Origin: Candidatus Bathyarchaeia archaeon
GTDB taxonomy: Archaea; Thermoproteota; Bathyarchaeia; Bathyarchaeales; Bathycorpusculaceae
Direction of reading: 5' to 3'
NCBI GenBank assembly: GCA_050012755.1
Contig: JBEKGO010000018.1
Coordinates: forward strand, 1-47,327
Length of the DNA stretch: 47,327 bases
This document shows, one piece after another, positions 15,477 to 47,327 of this stretch; the stretch's first letter is position 1; every line of letters starts with the position of its first letter. Below the pieces are notes generated by a model, which saw only the letters and a program-made list of their open reading frames with translations, did not search any database and had not been told where the DNA came from. Made by a program: the position numbers and the translations under genes.

Positions 15477-15554
15477 TGGTGGGGCTGCCCGGATTTGAAC
15501 CGGAGTCTATAGAGCCCAAGTCTACAAGCCTAGACCAAGCTAGCCGACAGCCCC
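15477..15554 (-). tRNA. tRNA-Pro(TGG), no intron, CCA encoded
   Basis: GGGGCTG/CAGCCCC-ACCA; anticodon arm GTAGA-CTTGGGC-TCTAT; T-loop TTCAAAT. Confidence 0.93.
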
Positions 15555-40096: not shown

Positions 40097-40624
40097 ATGC
40101 CGTTTAATCTATTCCGCAAAAAGAAACAACCAGAACAGGAAAAACCAGCCATGCCTCCTCAAGAAACACCCAAACAGGAAGAGTCTGTACAGCCTAAAGA
40201 AGAGATCAAACAAGAACCAGCGGTACCTTCTCAAGAGCCTGCACAAGAAACCTCGGTACCAACAGTGGAAGAACCAACTCAAACAGTTGCACTGCCTCAG
40301 GAGCAAAAACAGGAAGCCGCTGAGCCTCCAAGCAAAACCTACCTCAAAGCCATGCCTCTCCGCGAATTGTCTGACCTCGAAAACATAAAAAATGAGGTCA
40401 AAAACGGAAATATCATAATTTTACGTGTTACACCTCTTGCTGCAAAAAGCATTGACGATGTAAAAAACGCCGTTAACGAGTTATATCAATTCTCTGAATC
40501 TGTAGGCGGCGACATCGCCAGGTTAGGTGAAGAACGAGTTGTTATCTGCCCAAAAACAATAAGAATTTGGCGTGAAAAATCGCCGACGAAAGTTTCGAAT
40601 GAACCTTTACCTACAGCAGCCTAA
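40097..40624 (+). CDS. sepF: Cell division protein SepF with long P/E/Q-rich linker
   Basis: N-terminal amphipathic MPFNLFRKKK; C-terminal EVKNGNIIIL...GGDIARLGEERVVICP. Confidence 0.88.
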   Translation: MPFNLFRKKKQPEQEKPAMPPQETPKQEESVQPKEEIKQEPAVPSQEPAQETSVPTVEEPTQTVALPQEQKQEAAEPPSKTYLKAMPLRELSDLENIKNEVKNGNIIILRVTPLAAKSIDDVKNAVNELYQFSESVGGDIARLGEERVVICPKTIRIWREKSPTKVSNEPLPTAA

Positions 40625-42536
40625 AAGTTTCCAGTATTGCTGGAACAACCGTATTTATGCCAGCTTTGCTATCCATAAAGTTAGCAAATGCGATAGTTTT
40701 CTGTTTTTCTCCGTGAACAACAAAGATGCGTTCTGGCTTGGGTGTTAAATGAGTTAAGTAATTAACCAGTTGCCGCCTGTCTGAGTGGCCTGAAAAGCCT
40801 TCAATTGACACATTTTGCATTTTTACCTGCAGCGCCGCCATTTTGCCTTCGTTATCCATCATGGTTACTTCGCCTACGCCTTTCTGTACTCGTCTACCCA
40901 TGGTGCCTTCGATTTGGTAGCTGACAAAAATTATTGTGTTTCGCTCGTCGTTAGCCCAGTTCTTGAAGTACTCTATTACTGGTCCGCCTTCAAGCATGCC
41001 CGACGTCGCCAAGACAATGCACGGTTCTCCTTCGATGATGCTTTGTCGCACGCTTGGATGCTCTACGATTGTGAAGTAGTCGCTTTGGAATGGGTTGATG
41101 CCTTCGTGTAGGATGCTGTGGCGCACTTCTCTTCCTAGGTATTCTGGGTAGGCTGTGTGGATAGCTGTTGCTTCGCTAATCATGCCTTCAATGAAAACGG
41201 GTGCTTCTTTCATTAAACCGCGTTTCATGTATCCGTCGATGATGAGCATGATTTCTTGTGCTCTGCCGACGGCTGGGACTGGAATTAGAACTTTACCTTT
41301 CCTTTCCAATGTCTGGTTGATTGTGCGGGTCATTGCTTCTTCCGCTTCAATACGTGAAGGCATAATATCATCTGTGCCACCATAAGTACTCTCAGTAATC
41401 ACCGTTTCAATTCGTGGAAACTCCGTGGCCGCAGCCTCCAGCAACATAGTCCTAGCAAACTTGTAGTCGCTGGTGTAAACAATGTTGTGCAAGCCCTCGC
41501 CTATGTGTAAATGAACCATGGCACCGCCCAAAATGTGCCCAGAATTATGCAAAGTTAAACGAATATCAGGCGCAATATCAGTAACAACTCCATATCTGAG
41601 CGGAATCGTGTGTAAAACGCATTCACGCACGTCCTTTTGGTCATAGTAAGGCGTGACACCTTGTTTTCCAGCGACATCCAAATAGTCCAACTGCAGCATA
41701 GTCATCAAATTTGAGGTTGGGGCAGTACAGTACACTGGGCCATCATAGCCGTATTTGTAGAGAAATGGTGTTAAACCGCAGTGGTCAAGGTGGGCGTGGC
41801 TGATAACAACAGCATCCAATGAATCGATCTGGAATTCTGGACAGTCAAACCTTGGAAAACTTTCAAAAGGTCTATTTGAACCAGGATTAATACCACAGTC
41901 AAGCAGCACACTGCTCTCTCTTGTCTTAATTAGAAATGCTGAACGACCTACTTCTTGTGCTCCACCGAGAACGGTCATTCGAATGTCTCCAACATCATAG
42001 GTTTTTGGTCTAAAGATGCGCTCGCCTACGGTGCGAAGAATTCTCTCACGCTCTTTGCTTTCAGAGTGCAAGTAATGCCGCATGTGAGTAACAATCTTTG
42101 ATTTGATAGGTGGGCTACGCAAAACATGTGGGCGCCACTTGGTATTCTTTATGATATCCTGTAAAACAGCGCCGTTTCTTCCAATAACCAAACCTGGCTT
42201 CTTGGTTTCAATAATTATTTCGCCAAGACTTGGATCAAAATTAATATCTGTAATTTCAGCTTCAGCTGGGATAAGTTCTCTTGCGATTTTCTCAGCTTCA
42301 ACTTCAGGCAACCTAACCGATGGGTCGGGACGAATAACAATTCTTTTTCGGATAACACCGACAATTTCCGCGACTATCCCGCTTTGTTCAGCCAAAACCT
42401 CGGGTTTCTTAGTGTAAACCGCAAGCATAGGTCCTTCATATTCAATTCTGGTAACCTCTGCTTCTCTTGGAACTTTTTGCAAAATAAATTGACTAATTTC
42501 TATCTTATCTTTTTCTTTCTCTTGAGTTCGAGCCAC
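40611..42536 (-). CDS. fttA: Beta-CASP ribonuclease aCPSF1 / transcription termination factor FttA
   Basis: Two KH domains, HAHLDH, ESTYGG, SGMLEGG and FSGHSDR; adjacent to psmB. Confidence 0.96.
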   Translation of the reverse strand: MARTQEKEKDKIEISQFILQKVPREAEVTRIEYEGPMLAVYTKKPEVLAEQSGIVAEIVGVIRKRIVIRPDPSVRLPEVEAEKIARELIPAEAEITDINFDPSLGEIIIETKKPGLVIGRNGAVLQDIIKNTKWRPHVLRSPPIKSKIVTHMRHYLHSESKERERILRTVGERIFRPKTYDVGDIRMTVLGGAQEVGRSAFLIKTRESSVLLDCGINPGSNRPFESFPRFDCPEFQIDSLDAVVISHAHLDHCGLTPFLYKYGYDGPVYCTAPTSNLMTMLQLDYLDVAGKQGVTPYYDQKDVRECVLHTIPLRYGVVTDIAPDIRLTLHNSGHILGGAMVHLHIGEGLHNIVYTSDYKFARTMLLEAAATEFPRIETVITESTYGGTDDIMPSRIEAEEAMTRTINQTLERKGKVLIPVPAVGRAQEIMLIIDGYMKRGLMKEAPVFIEGMISEATAIHTAYPEYLGREVRHSILHEGINPFQSDYFTIVEHPSVRQSIIEGEPCIVLATSGMLEGGPVIEYFKNWANDERNTIIFVSYQIEGTMGRRVQKGVGEVTMMDNEGKMAALQVKMQNVSIEGFSGHSDRRQLVNYLTHLTPKPERIFVVHGEKQKTIAFANFMDSKAGINTVVPAILETFRLL

Positions 42537-42541
42537 AGTAA

Positions 42542-43186
42542 TTAACTTCCTGCTTTGAGAAGTTTGCCTTTCTCCTCGCCAGACAATTCGCGATAACCAT
42601 TGCTGTCGATAACAATGATATTGTAGTTGTTGCCACTAGCAGCGTCCCGTTTCATAGCTGCGTTAACTGCTTTAGCCATGGTTGGAAGCAACTCTGCAAT
42701 CGTCATACCTTCACGGTACTTGTCTTCAAGAATACCATAAGCGATTGGTGAACCGGAGCCTGTTGAAACCGACTTTTCCTCAGTCAAGCTGCCATAGGGA
42801 TCTAAATTGAAAACGTGTGGTCCAGTGTCATCTACGCCGCCGACAAGCACCTGTGTTGCAAGGGGTATGTAGCGTGCAGAAAACAGCAAATTAGCAACAA
42901 GCCTTGCTGCTGAACTAATAGGCATTGGACGATTCAAGTTGATTTTGTAGAGTGCGGCGTTAGCTGTTAGAATATCTACGACTCTTTGAGCATCTGCGAC
43001 TGTACCCGCAATTGTCATGCCGATGTGATCGTCGATTTTGTATACTTTTTTGCCGGCTTTATGAGCAACATAGAAGCCCATGGTTACTCGCGTGTCAGAA
43101 GCCAAAATTACGCCATCTTTACAGACGACGCCTATTGTAGTTGTTCCTTTAAGGACTAGTTGACTAGCTGAATTATTTTGTGACAT
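42542..43186 (-). CDS. psmB: Proteasome beta subunit (start reassigned to MSQNN)
   Basis: Propeptide ..LKG|TTT with catalytic Thr, STGSGS and RDAASG. Confidence 0.96.
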   Translation of the reverse strand: MSQNNSASQLVLKGTTTIGVVCKDGVILASDTRVTMGFYVAHKAGKKVYKIDDHIGMTIAGTVADAQRVVDILTANAALYKINLNRPMPISSAARLVANLLFSARYIPLATQVLVGGVDDTGPHVFNLDPYGSLTEEKSVSTGSGSPIAYGILEDKYREGMTIAELLPTMAKAVNAAMKRDAASGNNYNIIVIDSNGYRELSGEEKGKLLKAGS

Positions 43187-43890
43187 AGTTTGATGCTCCC
43201 TAAAACTTCGTTTCGCGGAATGCCATCCACTAGGAAGTAGCAACATGTAATCTTTCCGAGAGATTTATTAATATTTCGCCCCTTGGTTCTGGTAACTTGT
43301 CTTTAGATTCGGGTTCATGTTAAATCCCGTGGGGTAAGCTACTGCCACATTTTAAGGTGCTAACAATCGTGGGATACCGATTGAGGGAAGGAACAAGTGG
43401 AAAACCCTGATACAAAATGTCTGGAAAGTTATAAATTATAATTTAGAGCAACCCAAATTCTAAAAGGTTATTCTGCGCTTAAAACATGATTAATCAACAA
43501 GACGCATCAAGTTGCATCTTTAAACCACGTACCAATTGCTGTGGTCTCATTTTCTTAGAATGTTTCTCGTAAATGTCCCAATCGCTACACAGCTTTTCTA
43601 AAGTTAGAAAATCATCTTTGCCAGACTCAAGTTGTATTTGCATTTTTTCAACAGCTCTTTCTTAATCAAGTATTGTGTAGGATTATATAAGATGCTTATT
43701 TCAGCGTAAACAATATTACGATTTTTGGAATAATACGAAATTGAAAAATAAACTTACCACGACAGTTGACAGAGAACTACCCAAAAGCAAATCCCATGAA
43801 GAGTTAACAAGACCCGCCCATTACTCCTTTTTATGCAAAACTGTAACTGTTTTTCCTAAAGGTTTTTAGGCAACTCTGAAGTTTCACAGT

Positions 43891-43962
43891 GCAATTGGCG
43901 GGTGAGTGTGGTCTCCTACCCGTTCCGCCAACGTAAAATAAAACCCGGGATAGGGAGGCAAA
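43891..43962 (+). promoter_or_regulatory. Candidate riboswitch-like pseudoknot leader of queT-queC
   Basis: P1 at 43895-43901/43925-43931; loop 43911-43922 complementary to 43946-43959, which includes the SD; A-rich linker; TATA-like TTTTTA at 43863. Confidence 0.55.
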
Positions 43963-44460
43963 TTGAACTTGAAGTTAAAAACTAAAGATTTAGCTTTAAT
44001 AGCCATCTATGCCGCACTCTACGCAGCTCTTGTTGTTGTTCTCGGAGGCATCTCTTATGGACCCATTCAAGTACGCATTGCAGACTCAATGGTTGCCGCA
44101 GTTCCACTACTAGGTATACCTGGAGTTTTGGGTCACACGCTTGGAGTATTCATCGGCAATATATTCTCTCCAGACGGCATACTCGACCTACTAAACACAA
44201 TTCCCTCATTTGTCATGTCATTTGTAGTCTACTATGTTTACAAACGAACAAAGAATGACTATACAGTAATCGGAACCAGTGTAGCTTACTCTGCTGTTTT
44301 AGGCACGACGGTTGGATGGATGTTATCTTACCTGTACCATTTGCCGTTACTTCTAACTATACTATATGTAGCCGTTGGAAATGTCATTGCGACTGTGCTC
44401 ATTGGATGGCCAATATTTAAGTTACTAAAAAGAACGGGCTTGTTCCAAAATGATGTTTAA
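43963..44460 (+). CDS. queT: QueT family (COG4708) 7-deazaguanine precursor transporter
   Basis: AALYAAL...ISYGPIQVRIAD...GHTLGVFIGN; directly upstream of queC. Confidence 0.88.
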   Translation: MNLKLKTKDLALIAIYAALYAALVVVLGGISYGPIQVRIADSMVAAVPLLGIPGVLGHTLGVFIGNIFSPDGILDLLNTIPSFVMSFVVYYVYKRTKNDYTVIGTSVAYSAVLGTTVGWMLSYLYHLPLLLTILYVAVGNVIATVLIGWPIFKLLKRTGLFQNDV

Positions 44461-44502
44461 ATTCGAGACAAACAAAATTCAGCCTAAATCAGTGATTGAA
44501 AC

Positions 44503-45165
44503 ATGACTCAAAAACAAAAACCTAAATGCGTGGTTGTTCTCAGCGGAGGACCCGATTCAGCGGTTGTGGCATACTGGGCAAATAAAGAAGGCTATGAGCT
44601 GTACCCTATAACTTTCAATTATGGTCAAATCGCTGTAAAAGAAACAGCGGCAGCACAAAAAATCGCAGAAAGCCTTGGCGCAAAAACAAAAATCGTTAAC
44701 CTCTCAGCCTTGAAAGAAGTCTTCGGTGATGTGACCTCGCTTTGCAACAACAACATCCCCCTAACCTCTGAGTTTAGCCAACCGATAATCGTGCCTTTCA
44801 GAAATGCAATTTTCCTCTCAGTGGCAGTTTCTTATGCAGTTTCGGTCGGCGCTGACAAGATTTTTTATGGCGCACATGGCTCAGACGAACCCTTCTATCC
44901 AGACTGCAGACGTGAATTCTACGAGGCATTCGAGAAGGCAGCAAAGCTGGGCACGGGAGAGCATATCAGCATCCAAGTGCCGTTTAGCAGCAAACGCAAA
45001 TCCGAAGTGATCAAGAAAGGAGCAGAACTCGGCGTCCCCTTCAAGCTTACGTGGTCCTGCTATCGCGACGCGGAGAAGCACTGCGGGAAATGTGAATCCT
45101 GTGTAAACCGCAAAAAAGCCTTCAAAGAAGCAGGCATACCTGACAAAACAAAGTACGAATCATAA
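44503..45165 (+). CDS. queC: 7-cyano-7-deazaguanine (preQ0) synthase
   Basis: SGGPDS, NYGQ, VPFRNAIFL, YPDCR and TWSCY...CGKCESC..R motifs. Confidence 0.96.
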   Translation: MTQKQKPKCVVVLSGGPDSAVVAYWANKEGYELYPITFNYGQIAVKETAAAQKIAESLGAKTKIVNLSALKEVFGDVTSLCNNNIPLTSEFSQPIIVPFRNAIFLSVAVSYAVSVGADKIFYGAHGSDEPFYPDCRREFYEAFEKAAKLGTGEHISIQVPFSSKRKSEVIKKGAELGVPFKLTWSCYRDAEKHCGKCESCVNRKKAFKEAGIPDKTKYES

Positions 45166-45789: not shown

Positions 45790-46863
45790 TTAAACAAGCG
45801 TTTTTTGCTTTGCCATGGAAATCAGACTTGAAACTCTAACGCCGATAAGCCTGACTTTACGGTTTTTATGCAAGTAAGGAGCAAGGAGTTCTCTTGCGGT
45901 TTTTTGCAGATCATAGATGCGGTTGGTTAAAAAGGGTAAGGTTTTGGCTTTGGTGTGGGTTTCAAAATGTTCAAAACGAATTTTCAATGTGACGGTTTTG
46001 AAGAGCAGGTTTTGGTTTTCTGTTTCTTTTTGAACGTCGATGCAAAGGTCATTTAACGCTTGCAAAATCACAGTGGAATCAGATGTGTCTTCTTCAAAGG
46101 TGGTTTCGTGGCTTATGCTCTTAACACCAACACGCTCTTCAACCTCGCTGCGGTCAATGCCCCTAGCCATAAGATGCATCTGCCAACCCATAACGCCAAA
46201 CATCGAAGCTAACGATGAAGCATCATACTTTGCCAAGTCGCCGATTGTGTCAACGCCTAACTGTTTAAGTTTAGCCTCAGTTTTACGGCCAACCCAAAGA
46301 AGCCTTCGCACGGGCAAAGGCGCCAAAAATACCTCTTCTTCTTCATCTCGGACAACTGTCAAACCGTCTGGTTTCTGAAAATCGCTGGCAACCTTAGCCA
46401 CAAGCTTGTTCGGACCCACGCCAATAGAGCAAGTCAAATTTTCCCTTTCTTTGATCTCTTTCTTAATCTGCTGAGCCAAAGCCTCCGCCGCAACATAATC
46501 CTTCACCTTGCTCGTTACATCCAAAAAAGCCTCATCAATTCCCCACTGCTCAAACTTATCAGCATATTTGCGTGCGATTTCCATGATTTCTTCTGAAACC
46601 CTGATGTAGAGAGGAAAATTCGGCGGCAAATAAACTGCTACTGGACACAGCCTCCAAGCGTGCGAAATAGGCATGTCTGAGCGGACGCCGACTTTTCTAG
46701 CTATGTAGTTGCTTGTGCTAACGACGCCTCTGCCTTTGCCCCCTTTTGGGCCTGCGCCTACTATGACGGGTTTGCCTAGGATTTCTGGGTGCTCCCGCTC
46801 TTCCACAGCTGTATAAAAATGATCCATATCCAAATGAAAGATGAAGCGCTGCTTCTCACTCAT
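45790..46863 (-). CDS. dinB: Y-family DNA polymerase IV
   Basis: HLDMDHFYTAVE, IDEAFLD, NKLVAKVASD..KPDG and RLIGVRVS motifs. Confidence 0.95.
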   Translation of the reverse strand: MSEKQRFIFHLDMDHFYTAVEEREHPEILGKPVIVGAGPKGGKGRGVVSTSNYIARKVGVRSDMPISHAWRLCPVAVYLPPNFPLYIRVSEEIMEIARKYADKFEQWGIDEAFLDVTSKVKDYVAAEALAQQIKKEIKERENLTCSIGVGPNKLVAKVASDFQKPDGLTVVRDEEEEVFLAPLPVRRLLWVGRKTEAKLKQLGVDTIGDLAKYDASSLASMFGVMGWQMHLMARGIDRSEVEERVGVKSISHETTFEEDTSDSTVILQALNDLCIDVQKETENQNLLFKTVTLKIRFEHFETHTKAKTLPFLTNRIYDLQKTARELLAPYLHKNRKVRLIGVRVSSLISMAKQKTLV

Positions 46864-47089
46864 TACTAGTCAAGAAGCCATTAGCAAGCTACTAATTTGA
46901 ATTTATCGAAGACCAACACCTAAAAGAAATCCGAACAAAAAAACTATCAGACAGAAAATCTGTTGAAAAAAATCTCGGAATTTCTTAAAATGCAATATAG
47001 ATACGCCATGCATAGGCCAAACAAGAACTCTGCAACTCACATCGAGAAATATGCGCTCACGCAAATATCGCTCAAACACCACTTAGAGG

Positions 47090-47327
47090 GCACGACATCT
47101 CAGGTGATTGGTGGCCGCAGGCTGAGCTAGTCGATCGAAATCTTCTAGCTTACACCCCGGCTCCATCAAACCCATCTTTTATGGGAACCTTCGTCCAGTG
47201 AAACTGGAATGGCTGCCTCTTTTCGGGAGAGGCTTCGAGCTTAGATGCTTTCAGCTCTTATCCACAACGGCGTGGCTGCCCAGCAACTGCCTTATCAGAC
47301 AACTGGTTAACTAGAGGCCACAGCGTC
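47090..47327 (-). rRNA. 23S rRNA 3' end (partial; exact end approximate)
   Basis: Conserved GATAAGAGCTGAAAGCATCTAAGC and GGGGTGTAAGC segments of 23S domain VI on the minus strand; no 5S follows. Confidence 0.95.

Follow-up and report, generated by a model that had tools for sequence, protein, structure and literature searches.

The genes queT and queC are carried by a 47,327-nt stretch of DNA from Candidatus Bathyarchaeia archaeon (assembly GCA_050012755.1, contig JBEKGO010000018.1, positions 1 to 47,327 of the forward strand), referred to here as the window. The leader that precedes them, at about 43893–43962, appears to represent an undescribed class of riboswitch, and comparison with related sequences suggests that it acts as a translational OFF switch for a 7-deazaguanine, most likely preQ0 (7-cyano-7-deazaguanine). 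We put the probability of this reading at roughly 70%. What is generally taken to mark a riboswitch is found here: a conserved, covarying structure lies in the 5′ untranslated region of genes that belong to a single pathway. The leader covers the Shine-Dalgarno (SD) sequence of queT within a pseudoknot, its helices covary, and the unpaired bases at the helix junction are invariant.

Architecture and covariation of the queT leader

All elements of the leader lie on the forward strand. Helix P1 is formed by UUGGCGG (43895–43901) and CCGCCAA (43925–43931) and has 7 bp. Its 5′ strand is followed by loop L1 (GUGAGUGUG, 43902–43910), which begins with G43902 and U43903 and is otherwise G-rich and variable in length, and then by the 5′ strand of the pseudoknot, an anti-SD sequence (GUCUCCUACCCG, 43911–43922). 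Two U residues (L2, 43923–43924) link this strand to the 3′ strand of P1. The A-rich tail L3 (43932–43945), whose 5′ part varies in length, leads to the 3′ strand of the pseudoknot (CGGGAUAGGGAGGC, 43946–43959). By reading of the sequence, the pseudoknot in the window has 12 pairs, with A43950 and A43952 bulged. The SD GGGAGG (43953–43958) is contained in its 3′ strand and ends 4 nt ahead of the TTG start of queT at 43963. Over all copies, P1 ranges from 5 to 7 bp, the second helix from 8 to 14 bp and the total length from 46 to 77 nt. The shortest copies (46–55 nt) are reduced to P1, GUGG, an 8-bp pseudoknot, UU and UAUAAACC.

Upstream of the leader, promoter elements are found at a fixed distance from P1. 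A purine-rich sequence resembling the transcription factor B recognition element (BRE), TAAAG (43857–43861), falls in A-rich columns −41 to −37 relative to the G of GCGG (43898) in 214 distinct instances, and the TATA box TTTTTA (43863–43868) in T-rich columns −35 to −30 of the same instances; the information content is 0.3–0.7 bit in the TATA block and about 0.05 bit in the flanks. The spacing between TATA box and transcription start is established for archaea, and it would place the start at about 43892–43894, 1–3 nt before P1, where A is enriched (92 of 214 at position −4).

Most of this architecture had been proposed in an initial annotation of the window, and both strands of P1 were recovered base for base. 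The pairing of loop 43911–43922 with 43946–43959, with its 12 bp, two bulges and covered SD, was borne out by reading, as were the A-rich linker and the BRE/TATA-like element CCTAAAGG-TTTTTA (43855–43868); the expectation that transcription starts upstream of P1 agrees with the start predicted from the promoter spacing. The gene identities also held in Pfam. queT (43963–44460, with an alternative in-frame TTG at 43969) matches PF06177 with an E value of 1.1e-23, and queC (44503–45165), encoding 7-cyano-7-deazaguanine synthase, matches PF06508 with an E value of 1.7e-63 and NCBIfam TIGR00364 with 195 bits (cut-off 150). The two genes are probably co-transcribed.

The genome uses SD sites: an SD-like GGAG motif stands before long open reading frames (ORFs) in 201 versus 43 of 1354 cases, an enrichment of about 5-fold, and the 3′ end of its own 16S rRNA is GGAUCACCUCCU, which carries CCUCCU. 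The anti-SD strand of the leader would therefore compete with the ribosome for the same bases.

Folding of the single sequence gives a minimum free energy of −26.2 kcal/mol with a z score of −0.14, and 85 of 200 shuffled sequences fold equally well. This result is uninformative because pseudoknots fall outside the model of the folding program. Conservation and covariation of both helices, and of the promoter spacing, in more than 140 distinct relatives do indicate that the structure is more than a chance arrangement. In 26 leaders taken at genus level (160 nt upstream of queT), the block from P1 to the SD is far better conserved than either the promoter-proximal DNA or the protein; the mean column identity is 81%, while the matching QueT proteins are 38–88% identical. 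These leaders were aligned with plain MAFFT, fitted to no structure. Bases of P1 and the pseudoknot can pair in 94.4% of 482 cells, as compared with 89.4% after shuffling (reached in 0 of 500 shuffles), slid controls pair at 40–64%, and double changes are seen in five pairs. For example, 43901:43925 is GC in 22 leaders and CG in 4, and 43911:43959 occurs as GC in 11 and as UA in 10.

A wider sample of 100 diverse copies was aligned with a covariance model in which the pseudoknot is included (R2). Pairing is seen in 91.6% of 1783 cells, as compared with 82.6% in shuffles (0 of 500 reach the native value) and 43–55% in slid controls, and double changes occur in 14 of the 19 pairs (168 cells). 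For P1, 94.4% of cells pair and 5 of the 7 pairs show double changes; for the pseudoknot, helix cells pair at 92.4% and 85.7%, with double changes in 9 of the 12 pairs. The pseudoknot was also assessed independently of any alignment, by duplex energy. The native strands have a mean of −17.7 kcal/mol, strands partnered across genomes −15.2 kcal/mol and shuffled strands −10.6 kcal/mol, and for 116 of 143 distinct sequences the native duplex is better than the average of its cross-genome pairings. Compensated pseudoknots include UUUCCGACCCG with CGGUGUCGGAAG, CCACCCCCG with CGGG-N-GGUGG, UUCACCUCC with GGAGGUGAA, AUCAUCUCC with GGAGAUGA, GCCUCC with GGGGGGC and, within one RNA, CCAG with CUGG together with CCUCUC with AGAGG. 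The length of the C run tracks that of the G run in the SD, so that two, three or four C residues face two, three or four G residues, and in many lineages the helix extends 2–4 pairs past the SD towards the start codon.

The strongest conservation is seen outside the helices. Nine unpaired junction bases (G43902, U43903, U43923, U43924, A43940–42, C43944 and C43945) are identical in all 100 copies, and A43938 in 98. The pairs adjoining the junction are likewise invariant, whereas the bulged bases within the pseudoknot vary. The conserved core is therefore the helix junction and not the middle of a helix.

Distribution and gene context

Homologues of QueT were found in 51 of 61 related genomes. 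Of 151 genomes of the same order, 115 have a full-length match to a covariance model of P1 only, built from relatives (R1); among high-quality genomes the figure is 84 of 105. The order-level matches span 53 of 63 genera and all 12 families, nearly always as one copy per genome, and the genome of the window itself has exactly one. In a sample of the whole phylum, R1 matches 28 of 151 genomes, some of them in families of other classes (9 of 15, 3 of 3 and 2 of 2 genomes). The motif is also present in 7 of 7 genomes of a small class to which the two metagenome-assembled genomes (MAGs) with the labels Promethearchaeota and Hodarchaeota belong. Of five further genomes from the phylum, four have no QueT, and the fifth (G191) has QueT and no motif.

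At least 120 stretches matched in an exact-pattern scan of one genome per prokaryotic species, of which 80 were listed. Among these 80, 65 have titles of the Bathyarchaeia or Bathyarchaeota type, and the labels of others are Methanomethylicota, Nitrososphaerota and similar, Promethearchaeota or Hodarchaeota. The sole non-archaeal match among those listed (L173) is in a MAG labelled Actinomycetota and was rejected as a chance match, being GC-rich with no pseudoknot or SD partner; about this number is expected.

The genes that follow the motif are strikingly uniform. Among 100 order-level copies, tblastn places the start of a QueT gene no more than about 35 nt away in 97, and Pfam adds a further one (L076); of the remaining two, L129 has queC ahead of queT and the other is at a contig end. 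QueC lies within 1.4 kb downstream in 25 of the 100. For the public loci, queT is directly downstream in 71 of the 80 matches listed (some of these genomes are shared with the order-level set). The rest comprise queC first in one, contig ends in three, an unassigned membrane protein in one, an unclear case, the chance match and two loci (L174:2-583(-) and L180:2-598(-)) in which a queE-like radical-SAM ORF directly follows the leader. The five best NCBIfam hits of these two ORFs are all QueE models (E values 1e-30 to 1e-16, 90–104 bits), with the ORFs being partial and the scores below the NCBIfam cut-offs. In L129 and L210 the leader stands directly before queC rather than queT. The downstream genes are thus queT, queC and queE, which ties the motif to the preQ0 pathway; in the available text on them, bacterial preQ1 riboswitches are tied to the same pathway.

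The comparative data thus bear out what the initial annotation had expected of a regulatory RNA at this locus. Leaders of homologous queT genes are strongly conserved, and both helices covary in the 26-leader and the 100-copy alignments; relatives were expected in Bathyarchaeia, and most titles among the matches listed are from this group. The proposed link to preQ0-pathway genes is likewise seen, with queT, and occasionally queC or queE, directly downstream.

Probable ligand, described riboswitch classes and alternative explanations

The genome of the window (100% complete by marker genes) encodes QueC, QueT and one tRNA-guanine transglycosylase (TGT), the last in a 544-aa frame. In this complete genome no match to QueF or QueD was found, nor a convincing QueE, with generic radical-SAM proteins giving weak matches to the QueE model of at most 40 bits. 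preQ0 is the base that archaeal TGT inserts into tRNA. As there is no QueF, preQ1 (7-aminomethyl-7-deazaguanine) is not expected, and preQ0 is the expected pool and most likely the ligand. It is possible that the organism imports a 7-deazaguanine intermediate, either preQ0 or 7-carboxy-7-deazaguanine (CDG), instead of making it from guanosine triphosphate.

In the proposed mechanism, the leader folds as an H-type pseudoknot in which the UU linker and the A-rich tail meet at the helix junction. A 7-deazaguanine such as preQ0, which QueC produces, QueT presumably transports and archaeal TGT takes as its substrate, would bind the invariant junction and stabilize the pseudoknot. The SD and the start codon would then be hidden from the 30S subunit and translation of queT–queC would fall, resulting in feedback repression of both uptake and synthesis.

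The leader does not correspond to a family in Rfam. A scan of the whole window with cmscan at gathering scores gave no match in the leader, the matches being the end of a 23S rRNA and one tRNA, and there were no matches at all for 43700–44100 (401 nt) at E≤10. Ten related loci at E≤1 and the minimal leader variant at E≤10 matched no preQ1 family and nothing else of relevance. The only low-scoring hits in the Rfam scans were to unrelated families, such as the FdoG1 thermometer (18 bits against a cut-off of 50), a snoRNA and others; they are below the cut-offs and were set aside as chance. The Infernal comparison with the preQ1-I, -II and -III models that the initial annotation had put forward thus returned no match of any model to the leader, which therefore belongs to no known class.

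The minimal preQ1-I aptamer is about 34 nt long and has its ligand pocket at the helix junction. The archaeal leader is larger (46–77 nt, with a loop of 19–32 nt), and its second helix has 8–14 bp with bulges, as compared with the 3–4 bp of P2 in preQ1-I.

Further comparison was made with the descriptions of preQ1 classes I–III in the available portions of PMC11625349 and PMC11602147. As described there, preQ1-I (RF00522) is also an H-type pseudoknot with an A-rich 3′ tail after P1, the end of which pairs with the hairpin loop; its conserved bases also gather at the helix junction, the SD is partly or fully hidden, and genes of the queT and queC type are controlled. A clear difference is found immediately 5′ of the 3′ strand of P1, where preQ1-I has UC or AC, with a ligand-pairing C, and the archaeal leader has UU (43923–24, without exception in 100 aligned copies; L025, one further copy, has AU). 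preQ1-II (the COG4708/queT motif, RF01054) resembles the archaeal leader in its location upstream of queT, in burying the whole SD in a pseudoknot helix and in controlling translation only. According to these portions, however, it is almost double class I in size, forms an HLout pseudoknot of four helices (P1–P4) with a pocket at a three-way junction, the floor of which has U-A-U triples and takes in the buried SD, and is confined to Bacillota. The archaeal leader has only two covarying helices, and the embedded hairpin is dispensable, as the shortest copies have no room for it. preQ1-III (RF02680) was likewise discovered through queT leaders and uses anti-SD/SD pairing; in the same portions it is an HLout pseudoknot about 100 nt long, built of five helices, whose three-way-junction pocket lies more than 40 Å from the SD. 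In the archaeal leader the helix that contains the SD is stacked immediately on the conserved junction, and both size and helix count differ. The archaeal leader works like preQ1-I and preQ1-II, yet fails the defining features of each.

The accessible part of a 2024 review of the preQ1 family deals with bacterial phyla only and does not mention archaea. In the consulted part of McCown et al. 2017, the archaeal riboswitches are those for thiamine pyrophosphate (TPP) and fluoride and, rarely, flavin mononucleotide (FMN), Mg2+-I and guanidine-II; like the queT motif these are cis-acting leader RNAs, but they are bacterial classes with few archaeal members. A full-text literature search, covering sources outside most subscription journals, returned no archaeal preQ1 or preQ0 riboswitch, no fourth preQ1 class and no riboswitch from Bathyarchaeia.

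Several observations weigh against the reading of the leader as a preQ0 riboswitch. The pair counts from the 100-copy alignment are biased towards the pseudoknot, which its model contains, and some of the double changes are register shifts; the genomes are related to one another and not independent. The pseudoknot is long and GC-rich (duplex energies of −14 to −24 kcal/mol) and could form free of ligand. The C with which preQ1-I reads its ligand is replaced by U. The genome apparently has neither QueD nor QueE, so the ligand could be another intermediate, such as CDG, since the organism appears to salvage. Finally, 36 of the 151 genomes of the order have no match to R1, and in at least one related genome without a match (L281, G054:C3:86050-86900) queT stands behind a different leader.

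Alternative explanations have been considered for the same structure. Among them, binding of the leader by a protein or tRNA, for example by TGT repressing translation, is unlikely. A protein site could equally account for the unpaired invariant bases, and L1 calls to mind the tRNA D-loop around G15, the position that the archaeal enzyme modifies. However, L1 is variable beyond its GU (GUGAG, GUAGG, GUAAG, GUGGN), too variable for a D-loop mimic of this kind, and the motif is accompanied by no candidate regulator gene, with only queT, queC or queE downstream. In the leader of a single pathway, a pseudoknot that is compact and has an invariant junction is as a rule the signature of a metabolite aptamer. 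A ligand-independent element, be it a constitutive translational damper, an RNA thermometer or a structure that affects mRNA stability, is also unlikely. The SD-sequestering pseudoknot is stable by nearest-neighbour energies, but a plain occluding helix needs no nine unpaired bases fixed in 100 of 100 copies across classes, and such an element would not be confined to one copy per genome before genes of the preQ0 pathway. That the leader is a divergent member of preQ1-I (RF00522) and not a class of its own is highly improbable: topology, A-rich tail, junction invariants and the queT/queC context are shared, whereas short stretches remain unmatched in Rfam even at E≤10, loop and second helix exceed what an aptamer of roughly 34 nt holds, and the UC/AC specificity motif, given in the available descriptions for all three types of this class, is replaced by UU.

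It is also conceivable, though very unlikely, that the leader is an ON switch, in which the ligand favours P1, an inner hairpin and a short CCG/CGG pseudoknot, so that the SD is released. The hairpin in question, GUGG (43908–43911) with CUAC (43916–43919), is part of the minimum free energy fold. In the longer variants the G-rich L1 resembles a copy of the SD strand, and its pairing with the anti-SD strand is possible in 89.9% of cells in 100 sequences; in one variant (L062) all three strands have changed together (GUGAA, UUCAC, GUGAA). The long pseudoknot also looks stable unaided. Covariation of the hairpin is weak, however, since shuffled sequences reach 88.5% and only 7 cells show double changes, and the shortest variants, which retain the core, are unable to form it. 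In addition, an end product normally represses the genes for its own uptake and synthesis, and the bacterial preQ1 classes are all OFF switches in the consulted part of the review. A different competing helix, CGGGU (43899–43903) with ACCCG, which the initial annotation had proposed as a means of freeing the SD, is not supported. Its bases are near-invariant with no covariation, and the change of G43901 to C in 4 of 26 leaders is compensated in P1 and breaks CGGGU/ACCCG. An apparent negative correlation between the lengths of L1 and of the pseudoknot was discarded as invalid; it is built in, since the duplex program let the helix enter L1. The G-rich L1 of the longer variants may still tune the balance between structures, as an addition outside the core.

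The preferred reading therefore remains that the leader belongs to an undescribed riboswitch class through which a 7-deazaguanine, most likely preQ0, would turn translation off. A more far-reaching proposal stands at about even odds: that this would be the first riboswitch class with an essentially archaeal known distribution, having arisen independently of the three bacterial preQ1 classes and selective for preQ0 or CDG through a new pocket composed of GU, UU and AAA..CC, with the SD mimic in L1 tuning the longer variants.

A second leader, the surrounding locus and implications

In six genomes of the same genus, a second, shorter leader is found before a paralogous queT, whose protein is about 33% identical (L027:1451-1505, L028:1451-1505, L029:1979-2033(-), L030:1455-1509, L278:591-645(-) and L279:263-317). 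Its sequence is GGUAG-UUU-CCG-UAUAUAAC-CUACC-UUAAAAAACC-CGG. The layout agrees with the description of preQ1-I: UU follows the 5′ strand of P1 and AC precedes its 3′ strand, the tail is A-rich, and CGG of the tail can pair with CCG of the loop. It matches neither Rfam nor R1. The copies are nearly identical and hence show no covariation. One genome (G029) carries both kinds of leader before two queT genes (L279 and L280). An exact-pattern search found the second leader in 0 of 201 genomes of the family, of which only 11 are in the genus (that of the window and 10 relatives). The different leader of L281 retains a GGCGG...CCGCC hairpin with a short loop, while the anti-SD strand and the tail motif are absent; it may be a degenerate or a third variant.

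Upstream of the leader, the 14-mer ATTAATATTTCGCC occurs at 43267–43280, just upstream of a divergent proteasome beta-subunit gene (42542–43246, reverse strand). In at least six relatives it sits about 150 nt before the queT leader, and in the window about 600 nt. The recurrent 14-mer was set aside as no more than the proteasome gene's promoter region. Within the intervening region of the window (43281–43850), some 450 nt of AT-rich DNA, in which all ORFs are short, is apparently extra as compared with the relatives. By eye, a 641-aa ORF (40611–42536, reverse strand) resembles an RNase with KH and metallo-beta-lactamase (beta-CASP) domains, and a 357-aa ORF (45790–46863, reverse strand) resembles a polymerase of the DinB/Pol IV type. 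The 3′ end of a 23S rRNA gene lies at the window edge (47088–47327, reverse strand), and a tRNA gene lies at 15480–15554 (reverse strand).

The motif marks out queT together with queC and queE as one regulon. According to the accessible part of McCown et al. 2017, archaea are thought to make very little use of riboswitches, and those that they have are all classes borrowed from bacteria. If the proposed reading of the queT leader is correct, archaea would have evolved metabolite-sensing RNAs of their own, and this one would be a fourth, structurally distinct solution to the recognition of 7-deazaguanines. It would also provide direct evidence of SD-dependent translational control in the uncultured Bathyarchaeia, and a small natural pseudoknot of 46–67 nt that would be usable for the control of archaeal genes.

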